From: Methylocella sp.
Lineage (GTDB): Bacteria; Pseudomonadota; Alphaproteobacteria; Rhizobiales; Beijerinckiaceae
Assembly (NCBI GenBank): GCA_036560885.1
Contig: DATBQJ010000146.1
Location: 1-63,979 of the forward strand
Direction of reading: 5' to 3'
DNA length: 63,979 bases
Part shown: in pieces, positions 2,966-59,391 of the stretch
Layout of the letters: each line of letters begins with the position of its first letter
Position numbering within the stretch: position 1 is the first letter of the stretch
Translations under genes and position numbers: made by a program
Notes under the pieces: generated by a model
Seen by the model: only the letters and a program-made list of their open reading frames with translations
The model's database searches: none
What the model was told of the DNA's origin: nothing

Positions 2966-4372
2966 CCGCAGATGCGCGATCGTGAGGCTGCGCAAGCCGG
3001 CGACATCGAATCCCAACACGACGACAGTGTAGACGGCCACGCCGGTGGCAATCTGTTCGGCGAGCGTCACAAGTCCTGGCTCTTGAGCGCGCATTGGCAA
3101 AACGATCGCAGACATCAACGCATTGGCGAAAATCGTGACGGCGAGATCGCGTGGACGAGGCCATTGCCGTTTTGTGCGGCTTGCGAAACCGGTCAGCACG
3201 ATGAGCGCGACAAGCATCGCGCCGGCCTGGGCAATCGCGAGGTTGACGGCGCCGCCACCTCTCGGCAAGAACAGGAGCAGCAGAGGGTCGGCGGCACAAG
3301 CCGCCAAGGCCGCGACAATCAAAGGCGCGGTTTTTTTTTCGATCTGGAAGACCGGATTTATGGCGTATTGAATCATGGCCATGGAGAAGAGGCCGGTCAT
3401 CATCAAAGGCAACAGCAAGTCGAAATGGCCTCGATACGCCTCCGGCACGGCCAATTGCTCAATCGAGGGAAGGGTCAGCCAAAGACCTGTGCAGGCAGGC
3501 AAGACCATGGCGATGACGATGGTCATGTTGCGGGCGATCTGCCGCCTCGCCTCGGACGGACCATGCAATTCGTGCGTCGCGACCGCAATCTGGAACAACA
3601 CAATATCGAGGGCCGAGCCGATCGCCTGGATTGCCTTGGTTCCGAAATCATAAGCCAAGGAAAATTGTCCGGTTTCCGAAAATCCATCAAGGATCGCGAG
3701 GATCGAGCGATTGGCAAGCGGGATCGCAAGGTAAAGCACGTTGGCGCCGACGATGGGCAAACTATAGGCCATCAGCGAACGGGCAATGGAAAGGCGCGCG
3801 AGATGAGGTTGCGAGGCCGGATCGTGCAACGCCGCGCGCGCGGTGGCGACCGATCCGGCGAGACTGATGATGGTGCCGGCAAGAGTCATCTTGGCGGAGC
3901 CGAACAGGAAGGCTCCGCTGCCCATGAGAACGAAAGCCACGATATTCTTGACAAGAAGCAGCCGGGTAAAAAGCCTATCGTCGAAGCGGGCACGAACCAA
4001 CGCCGTATGATAATCGAACAGCCCATTGGCGGCGGCGGTGGCGAGCGCCAGGGTGATCAAACCATTAGTTAATGTAAATCTGATCCCGGTGAACAGAAGA
4101 AGGCTCGCGCCGGCCGCAAGCCCGGCGGCGATCATTGTAAAGCCGAAATCGAGCGTCGCCCGCAGCGCTGGCTCCTCGTCACGTATCCGTTCGGAATAAA
4201 ACCGTGTGGCCCCAAGCCGGATCCAATCGAAAAAGCCGGTCTGCACGAAAATCGCGGTCGCGTAGGCAAGCGCAAACCGGCCATATTCCTCGGGGCCAAG
4301 AAATTTCGCGACAAGAAGTCCGATCGCGAAATTGAACAGGATATTGCACAGAGAAACCAGGAAAACCGTCAT
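2936..4372 (-). CDS. Polysaccharide biosynthesis flippase-like (Wzx/MOP) membrane protein
   Basis: Many transmembrane segments; N-terminal motif AKFLGPEEYGRFALA. Confidence 0.8.
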   Translation of the reverse strand: MTVFLVSLCNILFNFAIGLLVAKFLGPEEYGRFALAYATAIFVQTGFFDWIRLGATRFYSERIRDEEPALRATLDFGFTMIAAGLAAGASLLLFTGIRFTLTNGLITLALATAAANGLFDYHTALVRARFDDRLFTRLLLVKNIVAFVLMGSGAFLFGSAKMTLAGTIISLAGSVATARAALHDPASQPHLARLSIARSLMAYSLPIVGANVLYLAIPLANRSILAILDGFSETGQFSLAYDFGTKAIQAIGSALDIVLFQIAVATHELHGPSEARRQIARNMTIVIAMVLPACTGLWLTLPSIEQLAVPEAYRGHFDLLLPLMMTGLFSMAMIQYAINPVFQIEKKTAPLIVAALAACAADPLLLLFLPRGGGAVNLAIAQAGAMLVALIVLTGFASRTKRQWPRPRDLAVTIFANALMSAIVLPMRAQEPGLVTLAEQIATGVAVYTVVVLGFDVAGLRSLTIAHLRLTFARMKTL

Positions 4373-4632
4373 CGAAGGAGCGCGCCGGGCCGTTGTGCGG
4401 CCGCACATGTGCTGGCACCGACCAGGGCATTATTGGAATCCAAAAGCCATGCGGCTACGGCGGGCATCGCAACAAAATTATTTGTTATCGTCATGAATTT
4501 CTCCAGCACCGTGGAGATTTTATCCTCAGGTGCTCTAAGGGCTCACGTTAATTTTACGAATCCCGCCAAATTGCCGGCGCCTCCGCGAGGACTTGGGCTT
4601 TTCCCTTATCCCACAACAAGCTAGAAGGGCGG

Positions 4633-5361
4633 ATGACGCACGATGTCACGCTTCCCTCCGCCGCGCTTGCAGGTCTTCTATCATTCCTGAGCCCCTGTGT
4701 GCTGCCGCTGGTTCCACCCTATCTTACGTTTATTGCCGGAACGACAATCGAAGAGGTTGCCAGCCGCGAAGCCCGCGCGCGGCGCGACATTTTCTTCGCG
4801 GCGGCGCTTTTCGTCTTGGGCTTTTCCACGGTCTTCGTTGGCCTCGGCGCGACAGCTTCGGCTTTCGGCCGACTGCTACATCAATACTTCTTGACGCTTT
4901 CGCTTCTTGCCGGGGTCGCGATCATCGCAATGGGCTTGCATTTTTTGGGCGTCTTCCGGTTTGCTTTTCTTTATCGTGAGGTTCGGCCCTCCGTGGGAAA
5001 GCCGGCCGGAATTTGGGGCGCCTACATCATGGGGTTGGCTTTCGGTTTCGGCTGGACGCCCTGCATTGGCCCCATTCTCGCGGCGATTCTCGCGGTCGCT
5101 GCGTCAGAGGAGACGGTCGGCAAGGGCATTGCGTTGCTGGCCTCCTATTCGGCGGGGCTTGGCCTGCCGTTTTTGCTGGCGGCATTGGCAATCGAACCCT
5201 TTGTTCGCGGTGTCAAGCGGTTTCGCCCCTACTTTGGCGCGATGGAGCGGGTGACCGGCGTTCTGCTCGTAGCGACGGGAATAGGGTTTTTGACTGGATC
5301 GATTGGGGATTTCTCGGCCTGGCTCTTGCAGACCTTTCCCAGCCTTGCCAATTTGGGATAA
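4633..5361 (+). CDS. ccdA: Cytochrome c biogenesis protein CcdA
   Basis: Motifs GLLSFLSPCVLPLVP and FGWTPCIGPIL. Confidence 0.93.
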   Translation: MTHDVTLPSAALAGLLSFLSPCVLPLVPPYLTFIAGTTIEEVASREARARRDIFFAAALFVLGFSTVFVGLGATASAFGRLLHQYFLTLSLLAGVAIIAMGLHFLGVFRFAFLYREVRPSVGKPAGIWGAYIMGLAFGFGWTPCIGPILAAILAVAASEETVGKGIALLASYSAGLGLPFLLAALAIEPFVRGVKRFRPYFGAMERVTGVLLVATGIGFLTGSIGDFSAWLLQTFPSLANLG

Positions 5362-5530
5362 ACGGCTTTCAAAGCGATTTGCAACCGCTACAATGAATGG
5401 CTGTGGCTTGAGGTTCTCGCCGGTGGCGCATAGTTTTTTTGCCGAAGCGTTTGCTAACATGAAAACGACCCATCGCACGCTGTTCTTTGACGGAAAGATC
5501 CCTGCGATGAAGAAGGACCCCGGCGAGGGC

Positions 5531-6061
5531 ATGACCAAATCCAACAATGGACACGCGGAGATACGCGCCGTGCCAGGTCAGGGCGTCGATCCGGCGCGGT
5601 TTCGCGACGCGATGAGCCGTGTCGCTGCCGCCGTTCATATTGTCACGACCGATGGACCGGCGGGTCTTGCCGGAATTACCGCGACTTCCGTCGCCTCGGT
5701 CACGGACGAACCCCCAATGATGTTGTTTTGCATCAACAAAACCTCGCCTTCTGCGGCAAGGATGATCGCGAACGGCGTATTTTGCATCAACACTCTTGCC
5801 CCCTCGCACGAGGCGCTTGCTGATATATTTGCCGGCCGCACCGGTCACCGTCTTGAGGAAAGATTTGCGGGCGGCGAATGGACCAAGCTTGTCACTGGCG
5901 CTCCAGTGCTTAAGAGCGCGGCCGTGGCGTTAGATTGCCGTCTTGTCGAGGCAAAAAGCGTCATGACGCATTTTGTCATGATTGGCGCTGTCGAAGCGGC
6001 GGACTTTGGTCTGGAAGGCGGCAACCTCGGCTACGCTCACCGCAAATACGACACGGCGTGA
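5531..6061 (+). CDS. Flavin reductase (RutF/HpaC-like)
   Basis: FRDAMSRVAAAVHIVTTDGPAG...TATSVASV..EPP, plus C-terminal THFVMIG. Confidence 0.88.
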   Translation: MTKSNNGHAEIRAVPGQGVDPARFRDAMSRVAAAVHIVTTDGPAGLAGITATSVASVTDEPPMMLFCINKTSPSAARMIANGVFCINTLAPSHEALADIFAGRTGHRLEERFAGGEWTKLVTGAPVLKSAAVALDCRLVEAKSVMTHFVMIGAVEAADFGLEGGNLGYAHRKYDTA

Positions 6062-6123
6062 GGTGTGCCGGAACGGACATTTATTCAGCTTTTTTTTGCC
6101 AAGTCGCTTCTTTTTGACCGGCC

Positions 6124-6978
6124 TTACAGCTGCTTTCTTCGCCGCCGCCTTTTTGCCGGAGCCCTTGGGCGGGGAGGGGGCGCGGCCGCCGCGGTTTCAA
6201 CAGCGGTCAGGAAATCGATGACCGCCTTGGTGAAATTCGCTTCATCCTCGATATTCGACATATGCGAAGCTTCCAGCGTGATGAATTCGGCGCCTTTGAT
6301 GGAACTGGCCACCAAAGCGCCTGACGCTGGCGGAGTCGAAAGATCGTGCCGCCCGGCAATGACGAGAACCTTGTTGGTGATGCTTCGAATGGCTTCGCGC
6401 TGATCCATGTCGCGGACGGCCGCGCAAGCGGCCAAATAGCCATGCAGCGGCGTCGTCCGGACCATTTCCAGCACGCGCTCCACTTTTTCCAAATTGGCGT
6501 CGCGGAAAGTCTTTGTGAACCAGCGCTCGGCGGCCGCAATAGCGACGTCATTCATGCCGCTATCTCGAGCCGATTGAATGCGTTTGTTCCACAGGTCGGG
6601 ACCCGGTATTTGGGCAGCCGTGCCTGCAAGCACCGCTCGGCCGATGCGTTCGCGCGCATGGACCATGAGCCATAATCCGACGATGCTGCCCATCGAAAGG
6701 CCCAGCCAATGGACTCTCTCGAGCCCGAGCGCATCCATGATAGCGAGCGCGTCACGGGCAAGGCCTTCGACCGAATAAGGTCCTTGTTTGGCAGTGCTTG
6801 CGCCAGCTCCGCGTGAATCGTAGCGCACGACTTGGAATTGTCTGGTTAAAGCGGGGATTTGAGGGTCCCAGAAACGAAGATTGGTCCCCATTGGGTTGGA
6901 GAGCATCAAGACGGGCTTGTTTTCGCCGCCCTCGATCAAAACGTTGAAGGTCTCGCCGGCGATGGTAATACCACTCAT
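6124..6978 (-). CDS. pcaD: 3-oxoadipate enol-lactonase (alpha/beta hydrolase)
   Basis: LSNPMGTNL.FWDPQ, RYDSRG, nucleophile elbow GLSMG, and HMSNIE. Confidence 0.8.
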   Translation of the reverse strand: MSGITIAGETFNVLIEGGENKPVLMLSNPMGTNLRFWDPQIPALTRQFQVVRYDSRGAGASTAKQGPYSVEGLARDALAIMDALGLERVHWLGLSMGSIVGLWLMVHARERIGRAVLAGTAAQIPGPDLWNKRIQSARDSGMNDVAIAAAERWFTKTFRDANLEKVERVLEMVRTTPLHGYLAACAAVRDMDQREAIRSITNKVLVIAGRHDLSTPPASGALVASSIKGAEFITLEASHMSNIEDEANFTKAVIDFLTAVETAAAAPPPRPRAPAKRRRRRKQL

Positions 6979-8057: not shown

Positions 8058-8161
8058 TAGAGCATTTTCGAGCGAAGTGGACACCGGTTCGCGTTAAAAA
8101 AATGCGATAAAACAAAAATGTAGAGCGCTTTCTGATCCTTCTGAATCAGAAAGCGCTCTAG
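8058..8161. repeat. Approximately 104-bp MITE/RIME-like intergenic repeat (copy 1)
   Basis: Near-identical to 38734-38838. It has the hairpin TAGAGCGCTTTCTGAT...ATCAGAAAGCGCTCTA and ends in CTAG. Confidence 0.85.
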
Positions 8162-15404: not shown

Positions 15405-16325
15405 TCAGGTCGTGCGCGCGGGATGTTTCATCGCCCTGATCGCGTCGCGCGCCGCCCGCGCGGGCTTAAGAGCGTTTCGCCTGACGGCGCCATAGACGCT
15501 TCGCTTGACCGCATCCTTGAAACCCGAAACCCGCGGCGGGGTAGGACTTAACCCCAGGCGGCGAAGCCAATAATTGGTCCTGTAGACATCCGCCGTGATT
15601 GCGTCGAGATAGTGGAAATTAACGTTCAGCGAGACCGACACCTCGGGCCCATTCTGCACCCAGTGGGGGGCGCCGACCGGAATGTGGACGCCCTGTCCGG
15701 GAAGGAGTTCGATCACTCTGGCGCGGTTTTGATATTGCGGCCGGTAGACTGCTGCATTGTTATCTACTGCCCAGAATTTTTCGATCTCCTGCTCCGGCAA
15801 CACATCGCGATCCATGGGGTCGAAAATGCTGATCGTTTTGCGGCCTCGGATCTGATAGAGCCAGCTGCATTCACGGTCGATATGGTAGGTGCTGATCCGG
15901 TTGGGCGAGTTGACGAAGATGATCGCATCGCGAAGCTTCATGACTTGTCCAAGGTCTCGCCCCGATAACGCGATGATCTCGTCCATGCAGGCGTCGAGCA
16001 GCCCGGCGTATTCGGCATCTTCTTGCACATGGCGTAAAACAATGAACGCGCCCGCCGTCTCGATGCGCCGCATAAGCTCATCGACCGGCACGTCGCAAGG
16101 CGGCGTCTGATCCCAGCGCTGATCGACCCGGATCTCGCCCGCGTCGTAGTACACATTGTCCGGGTCGCGCGACCGCCGGCGGGCCAGCGCGAGCAGCCGG
16201 TCAGTCTCAAAAAGAGGATTATCCGAAAGCCGATGCGCGAAAGTAAAGCAATTTCTGTCGAAGTTGCGGGCAAACACCGCAGGGTCCGCTTCTAGCAGCC
16301 GTTCAGGAGAGACTGTGGCCGGCAC
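15405..16325 (-). CDS. JmjC/Cupin_8-like Fe(II)/2-oxoglutarate dioxygenase-like protein A
   Basis: HxD...H triad (TYHIDRE...GAPHWV) and QIRGRK. GTG start at 16325 with GGAGA upstream; the ORF extends to 16367. Confidence 0.78.
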   Translation of the reverse strand: MPATVSPERLLEADPAVFARNFDRNCFTFAHRLSDNPLFETDRLLALARRRSRDPDNVYYDAGEIRVDQRWDQTPPCDVPVDELMRRIETAGAFIVLRHVQEDAEYAGLLDACMDEIIALSGRDLGQVMKLRDAIIFVNSPNRISTYHIDRECSWLYQIRGRKTISIFDPMDRDVLPEQEIEKFWAVDNNAAVYRPQYQNRARVIELLPGQGVHIPVGAPHWVQNGPEVSVSLNVNFHYLDAITADVYRTNYWLRRLGLSPTPPRVSGFKDAVKRSVYGAVRRNALKPARAARDAIRAMKHPARTT

Positions 16326-16517
16326 GGAACAAATCTCCACACAGAACAAAACTATCGAACGAAACAAGTCAGCAGATATAATGCAAATAACTAACCTCTA
16401 CGAGACAATGATTGGGGCGTATGAAAACACCAGGCAGTTCGACAAGCACGCCATGTGTTCTACACCTGCGAAGCGCTCTCCCCACGCCTTGCCTTTAGCT
16501 ATACTTTAATACTCTCT

Positions 16518-16551
16518 ATTTTGGTAAAGCTGCCCCGCACTTTTGTCAAGG
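16518..16551 (-). promoter_or_regulatory. Sigma70-like promoter element, copy 1 (upstream of JmjC A)
   Basis: The minus strand reads CCTTGACA-N17-TACCAAAAT; 31/34 identical to 17824-17857. Confidence 0.6.
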
Positions 16552-16671: not shown

Positions 16672-17643
16672 TCAATGCCTGCTCGTCCTTCGGCTCATCC
16701 GCTTAGCGAGCCTGAAGGGTGCCTTGAGCTTGTTCATGCCGGAATATAGCAACTCATCGGTACTTGCTGGATTTGCCTTTGTAAGCATTTCGAAGGTGCG
16801 ATGTTTCAGCCTGTCCCTAACCCGCGATTGGCCAGGCGGCAGCGGCCGAAATCCGAGATGGCGGAGACAATAATTCGCCTGATAAATCCTCGCCCTATAT
16901 GTCACGGGGGAGAGGGTGAACCAGATGCTGACGCTCACGGAGACGTTGGTCCCGTTCGTCACCAAGTGAGGTGCCAAGGGCGGGTGATGGACAGCTGTTC
17001 CAGGTGTCAGGTGAAACACCGTACCAGATTCCAAGATTTCTTCGCGGTAGATTCCGGCCATCGGATTCCCCGCGTAGAACCGCTCGATTTCATTTTCGGT
17101 CAGCACGAAGCGGTCCTGGGGGTCGAAGAGACGAACATTTTTTTCGCCTCGAATCTGAAAAAGGAAATTCGAGTCATGATCGAAATGGTATGGCGTGACC
17201 ATATTGGGAGACGCCACGAAAACTGTGATCCCTGACAAGCCAATGTCGTGCCGCAAGGGCAGCCCAGTGAGGTCCTCTATCTCGCCGATCGTCTTGTGGA
17301 GGATGTGATCATAACCGGGGTCCAATTCCTCAAGGCTAGATATTTTAAACCAAATCTTACCCTCTTCGACATGACGTATGGCTTGGAGCAGCCTGTCTCG
17401 CAGCGGAGCGCTGTTGAATTTCGCATCCCCTTCGACTGTGAGCGCGAATTTTGTTGGATCGCCCCTATCGATGGCTCCCTTGGCTAGGGTAAGCAACTTG
17501 GAGATATCAAAGAGGGGATGGTTCGCCAGAGTATGGCGAAAAAGGTAAGGCGCGGAATTAAGCCGCTTCCAAATGCCCGGATTTTCGCGTCCAATGATAC
17601 GCGTGTTGTCTTTTGCCTGCTCGACCAGAGTTGAAAGAGACAT
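16672..17643 (-). CDS. JmjC/Cupin_8-like dioxygenase-like protein B
   Basis: TPYHFDHDSNFLFQIRGEK...APHLV; paralogous to protein A (shared F.H.L...PLF and NY.LR.LG..P.PP). Confidence 0.8.
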   Translation of the reverse strand: MSLSTLVEQAKDNTRIIGRENPGIWKRLNSAPYLFRHTLANHPLFDISKLLTLAKGAIDRGDPTKFALTVEGDAKFNSAPLRDRLLQAIRHVEEGKIWFKISSLEELDPGYDHILHKTIGEIEDLTGLPLRHDIGLSGITVFVASPNMVTPYHFDHDSNFLFQIRGEKNVRLFDPQDRFVLTENEIERFYAGNPMAGIYREEILESGTVFHLTPGTAVHHPPLAPHLVTNGTNVSVSVSIWFTLSPVTYRARIYQANYCLRHLGFRPLPPGQSRVRDRLKHRTFEMLTKANPASTDELLYSGMNKLKAPFRLAKRMSRRTSRH

Positions 17644-17823
17644 CGTTGAGTGCCCCGCAGGTGAACAATGCACTATGGTCACTAATGCTTTTATGCTTTC
17701 CGATGTGCTATCCTTCGCTTGCCCCCTGTACAGGAAACTTGCACTTCCGATCCATGTAGGAGGTTGCACCGGTTGGGCGAAAGGGTGCGTTGTTTTCCAC
17801 GATAAATTACCGCGATCGTCTCG

Positions 17824-17857
17824 ATTTTGGTAAAGTTGCCTCGCAGTTTTGTCAAGG
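17824..17857 (-). promoter_or_regulatory. Sigma70-like promoter element, copy 2 (upstream of JmjC B)
   Basis: The minus strand reads CCTTGACAAAACTGCGAGGCAACTTTACCAAAAT. Confidence 0.6.
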
Positions 17858-19820: not shown

Positions 19821-19860
19821 ATCGTACCAAAATGTTTCACGTGAAACATTTTGGTACGAT
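19821..19860. repeat. Perfect 40-bp palindrome with exact parS consensus core (copy 2)
   Basis: ATCGTACCAAAATGTTTCACGTGAAACATTTTGGTACGAT; core TGTTTCACGTGAAACA at 19833-19848. Confidence 0.9.
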
Positions 19861-20047
19861 TGGGGCCAAAATACTTACAAGGCGTCAGACAGCGGCCACG
19901 TCTTCGATCATGTAAGATCGATCGATTTTTTGGTGCAATTCCAGGAGGGTGCAGCCGCCGCCTCGATGGCCAAGCCCATTGCCGGAAAAAGTATCGCCGG
20001 TGTAAGTTTCGTTGAGCGACGGGTTCAGACGCTTTTCCCGAAAGCTC

Positions 20048-20869
20048 TTACGATTGTCCCTTGCGATAGGCTGCGAGGTCTTGGTCGGTAATACTCTTCG
20101 CCTCGGTCAGGCGATAATGACGTTCTTGAACGATTGAGACGTCGTTCCCGTCGAAATTCAGTTCGAACAACGCAATCACGTCATCGGCCATGAATTGCGC
20201 CGAAACGGGGCGCGGAATCGAATGCGCGTAACGAGGCTCGGTCTCGCAAAATGCCGTATCTTGAATCGTCTGGATCGCTCCGAGAAAATCGGTTCCGCCT
20301 TTTGCTTGCACGGGCACGACGTACTGCGCTCCGCGCGTATCGACGCCCACATATAGCTCGTCAATTTCGATCTGGCCGTAGTTGGGAATTTTGGTTCGGA
20401 GGTGGCTTTGCAGAGAATAGGCCGTGATTCCCAGAAAGGTATCAATCAATCGATTGTAACGAATCTTGGCGAGTAGCGCTTGCTCATCGGTGAAAGCGTA
20501 ATGCGCGATGATTTCCGGCGTCGCATCCGGAACCTTGCGAACCAGCAGCCCCGGTGTCGGTTCGATGTAAGCTAGGTTGCTCAATCTGAATCGATAGCGA
20601 GCGTCACCAGCGCCTAAAATCAGCCAATGTTTGCCTTCGGGTTGCGTGCCGAGAATGTTTGTCGGGAGCTTTTTACGATAACGGAATGTGTAAATTACGT
20701 CGCCTAAGTTCTTGGGCTTCTTTACACCCAGCGCGGGCGCAACTGCGTCAATCTCCTCGCGTTGGAATTCGAAGTCGGCGGAACCCGATGTGTAATAATC
20801 GAAAAATATCTTCTCAATGATCGCCCCGTAAGCCGTCGTTTTCTTATCTTTCTTAGAACTTTTAGCCAT
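20048..20869 (-). CDS. Putative type II restriction endonuclease (XorII-like by recall)
   Basis: 273 aa from MAKSSK; overlaps the methyltransferase stop; PD-(D/E)XK-like QIEIDELYVG...VPVQAK. Confidence 0.72.
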   Translation of the reverse strand: MAKSSKKDKKTTAYGAIIEKIFFDYYTSGSADFEFQREEIDAVAPALGVKKPKNLGDVIYTFRYRKKLPTNILGTQPEGKHWLILGAGDARYRFRLSNLAYIEPTPGLLVRKVPDATPEIIAHYAFTDEQALLAKIRYNRLIDTFLGITAYSLQSHLRTKIPNYGQIEIDELYVGVDTRGAQYVVPVQAKGGTDFLGAIQTIQDTAFCETEPRYAHSIPRPVSAQFMADDVIALFELNFDGNDVSIVQERHYRLTEAKSITDQDLAAYRKGQS

Positions 20870-22199
20870 GAACCACCCTAAGGCGGCTGCGAGCTTCCTC
20901 GATCTCGTGTTGCTTTCTTTTCTTCGCGCCGCTTTTGCGGTCGCGGCGGCCGATAGGCGGCACGACGCCGAAGTATTCCGCCGCCTCCGACATTTCCATG
21001 TAGAGCAACGCCGTATCGCCCAAATCGATTGACTGCTCGGGCCGCCCCGCACAAAGGCCGAAAACTCCAGTCACGGCCGTCGCGATCGCGTGGGCAAGGG
21101 GAGGAGGCACGGCGTTCCCGATCTGCCGTGCGCCGTGCCATTTGGTCGCGTGGAAGCGGAACCAGTCAGGAAAACCGTGAAGGCGCGCCATTTCACGCAC
21201 TGTGACGCAACGGGCGTGTTGGTAATGGATCGGTCGCGGACTGGTGAAAGCGCCGCGCGCGCCGTCCGTGCCGGCGCGCAGAGTGTTCGACAAGCCGTCG
21301 GACGACAACTTGAAAAAGCGGCTGATCGGTTCGACTTCGCCGGGGAATGTCTCCACATAACGACTGCGTGAAATAGCCGTATGCGTCGTGCGTGCACTCG
21401 ACGTGAGCACGCTCGGATTCCAGTTCCGCACATACCCGTAGTGCCATGCGTCGTTGCTGAGGCAGCGCAGGGTGGCGGCATAAGGGGCAGGCTTGCCGAA
21501 CGACGTCGTGCACACGGCGTCGGTGTCGATCAGCGTCTCGAAATGATCGGCGTCGGGTATGTCGCCAAGCGCGTCGCGGCATGTAGGTCCGTTTGGTAGG
21601 CCGGGAATCGGCCCCCGGTCGTCGACGGCATTGAAGAGGGGCGGAGGATACGAGGGGAGCCTCTCGCCTTTCTTCGCGCCGAGCAGGATGAGGCGTTGCC
21701 TATGCTGTGGCACGCCGTAGCTGGCGGCGTCCAAAACGTGCCACGGCAAGCGCACGGCATAACCCGCGCGATCGAAGGCAGCGACCAGTTCATCGAGGAA
21801 GATGCGATGCGTGCCAACAGTGAGTCCTTTTACGTTTTCGAAGACGAAGGTGCGTGCATTCAGTTCGGCGACGATGCGTACGAATTCGAGTACGAGATTG
21901 TTGCGCGGATCTTCGAATGCTCGCTGTCCGATCAACGAAAAGCCTTGGCAGGGCGGCCCGCCGAATACGCAATCGATCGGCCGGTTGCCGATGCCCGCGG
22001 CCAAACGGATATCGGCCGCCTTTAACCCGATAACCGATCGCGGCAGAACGGCCGTGTCGGGAAAGTTGAATTTGTGGATAGCGCAATGAACCGGGTCGAT
22101 TTCGACGGCAGCCGCCACATCGAAGCCCGCCTGTTCGAATCCGAGGCTCATGCCCCCCGCTCCAGCAAAGAGATCGATTCCGATTGGTCGTTTCTCCAT
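20862..22199 (-). CDS. dcm: DNA (cytosine-5)-methyltransferase
   Basis: Motifs I DLFAGAGG, IV GGPPCQGFS, VI ENVKG, VIII QHRQR and X GNAVPP. Confidence 0.95.
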   Translation of the reverse strand: MEKRPIGIDLFAGAGGMSLGFEQAGFDVAAAVEIDPVHCAIHKFNFPDTAVLPRSVIGLKAADIRLAAGIGNRPIDCVFGGPPCQGFSLIGQRAFEDPRNNLVLEFVRIVAELNARTFVFENVKGLTVGTHRIFLDELVAAFDRAGYAVRLPWHVLDAASYGVPQHRQRLILLGAKKGERLPSYPPPLFNAVDDRGPIPGLPNGPTCRDALGDIPDADHFETLIDTDAVCTTSFGKPAPYAATLRCLSNDAWHYGYVRNWNPSVLTSSARTTHTAISRSRYVETFPGEVEPISRFFKLSSDGLSNTLRAGTDGARGAFTSPRPIHYQHARCVTVREMARLHGFPDWFRFHATKWHGARQIGNAVPPPLAHAIATAVTGVFGLCAGRPEQSIDLGDTALLYMEMSEAAEYFGVVPPIGRRDRKSGAKKRKQHEIEEARSRLRVVHG

Positions 22200-38604: not shown

Positions 38605-38681
38605 CGGGGCATAGCGCAGTCTGGTAGCGCGGAAGTTTTGGGTACTTCAGGTCGCAGGTTCGAATCCTGCTGCCCCGACCA
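38605..38681 (+). tRNA. tRNA-Pro (TGG)
   Basis: 77-nt cloverleaf; anticodon arm GAAGT-TTTGGGT-ACTTC; T-loop GTTCGAATC; encoded CCA. Confidence 0.96.
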
Positions 38682-38733: not shown

Positions 38734-38838
38734 CTAGTGCATTTTCGAGCGAAATGGACACCGGTTCGCTTTAAGAAAATGCGATAAAACAAAAACCTAG
38801 AGCGCTTTCTGATTCCACTAAATCAGAAAGCGCTCTAG
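38734..38838. repeat. Approximately 105-bp MITE/RIME-like intergenic repeat (copy 2)
   Basis: Bounded by CTAG at both ends; near-identical to 8058-8161. Confidence 0.85.
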
Positions 38839-59372: not shown

Positions 59373-59391
59373 AAACATTTTGGTGCGATTG
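59373..59391. repeat. Half-copy of the parS-core palindromic repeat
   Basis: AAACATTTTGGTGCGATTG is 19/19 identical to 1887-1905. Confidence 0.7.

Follow-up and report, generated by a model that had tools for sequence, protein, structure and literature searches.

The question raised by this locus is whether a parS sequence set in a perfect palindrome, on a different contig from parB, belongs to a mobile repeat, to a scar of recombination or to a system that the ParB of the host may use. The window (the whole stretch of 63,979 nucleotides that was analysed) comes from a Methylocella genome of 3.49 Mb in 287 contigs (G000, 92% complete), in which parB is located on contig C122. As the earlier note had proposed, the 40 bp at 19821–19860 form a perfect palindrome, which is its own reverse complement and has no strand, composed of two 12-bp arms around a 16-mer at 19833–19848 (likewise strandless). 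This 16-mer is an exact match to the parS consensus and a predicted ParB loading site, the ParB of the host keeping the equivalents of R173 and G201. The second copy, at 1864–1903 (strandless), does differ from the first at 2 of 40 positions, as claimed, and the first base of its core (1876–1891) is changed. The supposed half-copy at 59373–59391 (plus strand) is identical to 1887–1905 of the second copy, but it comprises one arm and only the last five bases of the 16-mer and is therefore not a parS; it is likely a decayed or recombined copy. The window contains three matches to the parS 16-mer at up to three mismatches against 0.09 expected from 100 shuffles, the third match (at 17003) having three mismatches. 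A search of the window against Rfam returned two tRNAs only and nothing for the palindrome.

The gene neighbourhood described for these copies could be recognised in part. TMEM175 (1167–1739), prmA, lysS, a cytosine methyltransferase, an aspartate-aminotransferase-family gene and a glycosyltransferase were all found, but the family search gave nothing for the supposed restriction enzyme at 20048–20869 or for the ORF at 79–1077. Both flanks of the main copy were reproduced in contigs from two of four sequencing runs, which may represent the samples of origin. The summed contig depth over 19824–19900 in runs X1 and X2 was 4,000–6,700 on the palindrome versus less than 10 on the adjoining cassette, which indicates a word common to many organisms or loci in those soils. 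This cassette, the cytosine methyltransferase with an unannotated 273-aa ORF (20048–22199), is likely to be a recent arrival, since the two closest relatives lack it in the 1.5 kb upstream of lysS. The window also holds a second family of 104-bp repeats, which contain an internal palindrome and are 90% alike, at 8058–8161 and 38735–38838, the latter copy coming after a tRNA at 38605–38678; we presume it to be akin to CIR/RIME-type repeats. A 39-bp repeat at 16513–16551 and 17819–17857, upstream of each of two Cupin_8 genes (15405–16367 and 16672–17769), is likely a duplicated promoter region.

Alignment of the copies revealed a constant order outward from the centre, namely half-core, T tract, 8-bp half-site, 11 variable bases and inverted half-site. 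The consensus of the pair is TGTMMGRT-N11-AYCKKACA, the whole bipartite site taking 27 bp. In the main copy it occupies 19853–19879 (strandless), with the inner half-site at 19853–19860, the spacer at 19861–19871 and the inverted outer half-site at 19872–19879; its counterpart in the second copy, placed by sequence and alignment, is at 1896–1922 (strandless, outer half-site 1915–1922). With a spacer of 11 bases, an outer half-site was found in 144 of 374 halves; no other length between 5 and 19 gave more than seven. Spacer positions 22–28 carry only 0.1–0.5 bits and the spacers of G000 are just 49% alike. Of the spacer-11 sites of G000, 29/33 are within 60 bp of a core, a figure that is partly circular because the matrix was derived from these same copies. 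Most copies have the half-site pair on one side only, and some possess a long arm, extending to about +335, that carries more half-site-like words. The long arm of the main copy (19880–20011, plus strand), common to a subset of copies, has 75–77% identity to the five closest paralogous arms and includes half-site-like words at 19911–19918, 19925–19940 and 20001–20008. The word at 19925–19940 had been taken for a degenerate arm closing a unit of about 120 bp; it is present, but it is internal to a longer similarity that continues to about 20011 and is therefore no unit end. A strict version of the pattern gave 20–42 sites in nine genomes and none in nine two-site genomes, and also 0–1 in carriers such as G000 and G035, in which the inner half starts differently. 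The repeat is, in our reading of the alignments, a composite site made of a well-conserved predicted parS core and one or more inverted half-site pairs with a variable spacer of fixed 11-bp length.

The composite site is neither rare nor confined to the window. G000 has 36 matches to the 40-mer at up to nine mismatches (34 at up to six), 33 of the 36 outside called genes, together with plain cores without arms between mnmE and mnmG on contig C29. A lone near-perfect core was noticed within the htpG reading frame (G000:C111:24491). Exact 14-bp cores number 1–2 in 13, 3–8 in 10 and 9–91 in 34 of the 57 genus genomes (all genus counts leave out G019); G004 has 61, and G008, G013 and G026 have two each, next to parB in G013 and G026. 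A sequence-only model built from 63 copies gave, with both strands counted, at least 13 strand matches in 42 of these genomes (the upper counts being mostly at least 80), 6–10 in four and 0–2 in 11, which places the repeat in at least 42/57 genomes of the genus, at about 3 to more than 40 model-matched sites per carrier and with wide variation inside a clade. These carriers are kin and not independent, so that two or three origins, not 42, should be counted. In the family's other genera (146 genomes), the model (R1) found one 26-bp match. Among 300 other genomes of the order, 298 have 0–5 exact cores, the exceptions being G145 (81) and G181 (9), the latter a 2.0-Mb genome from another family. 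A genome scan across all species gave at least 115 loci; the 80 listed with their titles belong to Methylocella, Methylocapsa, USC-alpha Beijerinckiaceae or unclassified proteobacterial MAGs. We found no account of this repeat in the literature, nor any paper pairing parS with Methylocapsa; supplements, the tables of the 2007 parS survey of Livny et al. and subscription papers may carry such counts.

In all the distances given below, the native parS locus stands in for the origin. In four single-contig genomes, the located copies that are more than 250 kb away from it make up 96% of 57 in G004, 97% of 30 in G035 and 100% of 16 in G064 (genome length taken as 3.33 Mb), and in G036 the same holds for 88% of 25 clusters. 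The view that a parS-bearing repeat is dispersed away from the origin has thus held up, and the opposite picture, a few copies all near oriC, is not what these genomes present. An ordinary origin-proximal parS cluster is ruled out by the chromosome-wide spread and the distances from the native site, and the clustering near the origin or parAB that marks parS is not displayed by the dispersed copies, again with the native parS as proxy. Within 250 kb of the native site there are six copies against 16.2 expected (P = 0.0035 for a window picked after looking; P = 0.08 at 300 kb). Even spacing is significant in G036 only (gap CV 0.55, P = 0.0009), the values elsewhere being P = 0.10 in G004, 0.31 in G035 and 0.91 in G064. 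The collected evidence indicates that this is a real, lineage-wide lattice of predicted composite parS sites.

The core appears to be held more tightly than its surroundings. In G004 only one further core appears when one mismatch is allowed in addition to the 61 exact ones (62 in total, against 1 in the control). In G000, with the polymorphic core positions 6 and 8 from the centre left out, mismatches affect 5/432 core positions versus 51/864 in the arms (p = 3e-5), and the two bases that confer parS specificity differ in 2/144 cases. In the consulted part of PMC7383237, guanine 1 and base 6 define parS versus NBS, and the ParB residues R173 and G201 confer parS specificity; the common core variant of G000 concerns another base and spares both positions, and the equivalents of both residues are kept in 35/35 ParB sequences. 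Still, 28/68 halves in G000 carry a change that may affect binding, and repair within the palindrome could keep the centre uniform without selection, mimicking part of the constraint pattern. SMC matches were obtained in all five genomes tested (three above the cut-off, split matches in G000 and G026), and no MipZ match was obtained at 1e-15 in G000, G004, G036, G026 or G008, with Caulobacter as the positive control; neither SMC presence nor MipZ absence separates genomes with the sites from those without. Residues 61 and 135 of the ParB alignment (G000 numbering) are D and A in six two-site genomes versus E and P in both carrier clades, a split that reflects few independent changes and may be due to chance.

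The native parS lies between mnmE and mnmG, upstream of mnmG/gidA, and its flank is of another kind. Among 30 gidA loci (L268–L297; with G019 omitted and one locus without a site, 28 were counted; G000:C29:1191 is the example from the host), the native core is followed in 25/28 by a word at most three mismatches from the Irr ICE box consensus given in the consulted part of PMC1698941, and all 25 are carriers. No such word was found at the three two-site gidA loci or in any of 72 dispersed halves. The ICE-like word, a palindrome adjoining the native parS, could link the mnmG-parAB operon or the centromere with iron, or it may mark the true centromere. Native and dispersed cores of G004 have variants in common, and G081 has a hybrid copy with one native-type and one dispersed-type flank. 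In a ParB tree of 34 rows (a single gene with a midpoint root, covering 34 of 58 genomes), support of 100/100 was obtained both for a clade of 24 carriers and for the four genomes of the G036 clade, which branches among two-site genomes. In G036, about 25 clusters, mostly of 2–3 perfect cores, stand in G/C-tract flanks, and most of the 13 loci viewed have the same half-sites close by; the native centromere of this genome is amplified to 11 cores in about 500 bp (L377:3363-3881), plus one after mnmG. In G145, from another family, many loci hold tandem arrays of about 50 bp (L018–L032 and L421–L428); the cores total 81, of which 36 surround gidA-parAB, and no bipartite site was seen in the eight G145 regions read. 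Outside the main carrier clade, parS is therefore also scattered, in other flanks and with amplification of the native cluster, in a second clade of this genus and in one genome from elsewhere in the order.

The positions of the copies turn over. The unit is upstream of lysS in 3/29 genomes (three flanks being short); upstream of prmA, among 29 genomes, G000 and G020 have it and G081 has a different copy, and in G017, G031 and G068 TMEM175 adjoins prmA without the unit, with boundaries that do not align. At 15 G035 sites with an adjoining G000 orthologue, a same-side G000 copy occurs at seven, two of these decayed, and both flanks are syntenic at just 1/51 testable sites. At lysS, three close genomes share 91–93% identity on the gene side and 77–79% on the arm side, and only G000 of the three has the methyltransferase cassette there; the arm side is no nearer than paralogous arms are, which makes it likely that arms were swapped at the palindrome. 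Long arms are also copied between loci. The suggestion of recombination scars was therefore sound as far as flank exchange and turnover between species are concerned. The claimed enrichment at core/accessory junctions fared less well: it is seen over all gaps (12/18 vs 89/259, p = 0.01) but fades to 11/16 vs 62/149 at gaps of at least 300 bp (p = 0.06) and to 8/12 vs 37/67 at gaps of at least 500 bp (p = 0.54). This test covered 29 target and 31 control regions and used the 18 sites that a strict filter retained; 'accessory' denotes the lack of a 60% match in the incomplete G000, and the unit itself lengthens gaps; the enrichment is weak after gap-length matching.

The mobile-element proposal was not supported in its specific forms. 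A MITE of 120 bp with terminal repeats is ruled out by the variable, one-sided extent of the similarity, which has no terminal repeats, and by the missing target duplication (none of at least 4 bp in 28 two-sided copies at three offsets). No autonomous mobiliser with matching ends was seen between close pairs, in viral contigs or in plasmids, part of the transposase families being covered. The copies are multicopy extragenic palindromes as REP elements are, but a RAYT-type mobiliser does not accompany them: PF01797 occurs in two of five genomes, with none in G036 and a fragment in G000. A small peptide read through the palindrome is likewise rejected (a start codon in 59/72 halves, frames from 10 to at least 59 codons, G004 mostly without the start base).

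Several candidates for a protein that would bind the half-site pairs were considered. An IntA-like recombinase is found in 6/58 genomes, of which two have distant versions (35–37%) in the element-rich G009 and G070, and an HTH_13/DUF1403 protein in 17/58. The former is missing from G000, G004, G010, G022 and G036 and the latter from G000, G010, G022 and G036; local profiles of both gave nothing close in G000. Their distributions do not track the unit, and neither is therefore accepted as partner. XerD is rejected on the predicted dif site on G000:C73, whose XerD arm differs at a near-invariant base; an integrase common to G004, G036 and, as a fragment, G000 looked like a prophage type; and the genes downstream of parB are not shared between genomes. 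The xerC of G036 (L387) has a frame shift near its end, which may be an assembly error. A module of recombinase, att-like site and DUF1403 occurs at L368:5038-8193, L369:4855-7338 and L409, with an ScpB-like gene in L368, where it may be a mobile unit carrying an SMC-subunit homologue.

The reading that we prefer, at odds slightly better than even (about 55%), is that the dispersed composite sites are functional ParB loading sites kept by selection and used together with a putative partner protein. ParB would load at the dispersed cores and recruit SMC along the chromosome arms, while a second dimeric protein would likely bind the flanking half-site pairs and might halt the ParB clamp or lock it in place; the nearest known mechanism is the locking of KorB by KorA. 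With their clamps locked by the partner, the dispersed sites would not compete as centromeres, and the true centromere between mnmE and mnmG would stand out through its own type of flank or a much larger number of sites. New copies would likely arise through duplication and crossovers inside the shared 40-bp palindrome while old ones decay, so that positions turn over and the lattice persists. In favour of this reading are the spread of the sites, the constraint on the core, the retained ParB specificity residues, the variants common to native and dispersed cores in G004, the repeated outcome in the G036 clade and G145, the scarcity of copies close to the native site and the SMC matches. The variation in copy number and the decayed copies fit drift or selfish spread and count against selection.

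A rather unlikely alternative holds that a selfish non-autonomous element, or a relic of IntA-type integration, captured parS, the pairs being recombinase sites at which accessory DNA enters or is swapped and the extra parS being tolerated. The attA of IntA, as described in part of PMC4928290, has the same half-site and 11-bp geometry, in G061 two lone perfect sites lie between an IntA-like tyrosine recombinase and DUF1403, and the lysS exchange with its G000-only cassette, the long arms duplicated across loci and the junction excess of 12/18 all agree with such traffic. Against it, the IntA-like genes are restricted to 6/58 genomes and missing from the five named above. Tyrosine recombination needs matching overlaps, whereas the spacers here differ from copy to copy. 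A selfish element is further opposed by the lack of target duplications and of any match to the repeat in viral contigs and plasmids, by the unrelated housekeeping genes that lie between close copy pairs, and by G145, which scatters parS without such half-site pairs. The likeness to IntA att may nevertheless show where the arms originated.

We regard as quite improbable the idea that the copies are an operator network, in which loaded ParB clamps locked by the partner repress nearby promoters, e.g., those of recent acquisitions, in the manner of KorB and KorA on RK2. The location of 33/36 copies outside called genes, the share of divergent gene gaps among those holding copies (13/31 vs 431/1620 genome-wide, p = 0.066) and the layout of a ParB site beside a partner site (consulted part of PMC11790492) are what it would predict, yet the genes beside the copies are unrelated in function and mostly not common to different species, they are not lower in GC3 (p = 0.77), and the even spacing in G036 is unexpected for a regulon. 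A REP-like hairpin acting as single-stranded DNA or RNA, with the parS match incidental, seems very improbable. The palindrome folds strongly (z = −5.3) and 93% of cells are paired in the 63-row alignment, above all 500 shuffles, but this alignment pools genomes and its covariation is therefore inflated, three variable pairs are broken in 15–17 of the 63 rows, and the commonest G000 variant sits on one half only, on either side, in 24/34 copies and on both halves in two (p = 0.013; C114 and C159 left out). The missing Rfam match and the absence of a Y1 transposase from G036 also count against it.

Beyond the preferred reading of ParB loading sites with a partner, a broader scheme is possible, though doubtful: holocentric-like chromosomes may have arisen on more than one occasion, and their parS code would have two tiers, in which a dominant centromere, amplified or specially flanked, is combined with a tuned ParB/SMC lattice on both arms, gated by a clamp-locking protein that reads IntA-derived sites. 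The carriers include MAGs of the upland soil cluster alpha, soil methane-oxidising bacteria that are slow-growing oxidisers of atmospheric methane. According to experiments in Caulobacter and to genome surveys, parS sites have to remain close to the origin. In the present case, entire clades belonging to that class retain tens of intact sites on both arms, and at least two other lineages likewise scatter parS in different flanks. If ParB occupies these sites, such genomes offer natural test cases for centromere dominance and for the effect of several SMC loading sites.

Among the known systems, Noc of the ParB family uses NBS sites that are spread chromosome-wide and excluded from the terminus region. 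An exclusion of this type is not evident here when the chromosome fifth opposite the native parS is taken in place of the terminus, this fifth holding 11, 6, 6 and 2 sites in the four genomes. The two systems share a ParB-family protein with a palindromic site (consulted part of PMC7383237), but Noc is a distinct paralogue that uses another site. ParABS of Caulobacter crescentus has the same 16-bp site and the same ParB specificity residues. There, according to the part of PMC5815017 consulted, the parS cluster is about 8 kb from the origin and a second cluster is tolerated mainly within about 500 kb and strongly disfavoured mid-arm, whereas here 88–100% of the located copies in four genomes are more than 250 kb from the native site and MipZ was not found in five genomes. 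Pseudomonas aeruginosa also has ParB sites away from its origin, with ten full parS, four of them near oriC, and short half-parS (PMC4368675, PMC5961200 and PMC10419367, each in part); here a composite unit is repeated, with full sites numbering in the dozens. MITEs, REP and CIR elements (PMC3184786, in part) are similarly short, multicopy, intergenic, palindromic and limited to one lineage, but the present repeat has no terminal repeats or target duplication, no matching transposase was seen, and its conservation resides in binding-site-like words and not in ends. The attA of Rhizobium etli IntA (PMC4928290, in part), with its inverted half-sites 11 bp apart, is nearly the same in half-site sequence and in separation; its inner bases are AA/TT and its cognate recombinase adjoins it, while in our sites the inner bases and central regions differ, the spacers vary, parS lies directly alongside and most carriers lack the recombinase. 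In plasmid RK2, KorA bound at OA stalls and locks the KorB clamp loaded at OB (PMC11790492, in part), and the arrangement of a ParB-family site beside a putative partner site is alike; KorB and KorA are plasmid proteins with their own operators, whereas the composite sites described here would bring the same logic to chromosomal ParB and canonical parS.
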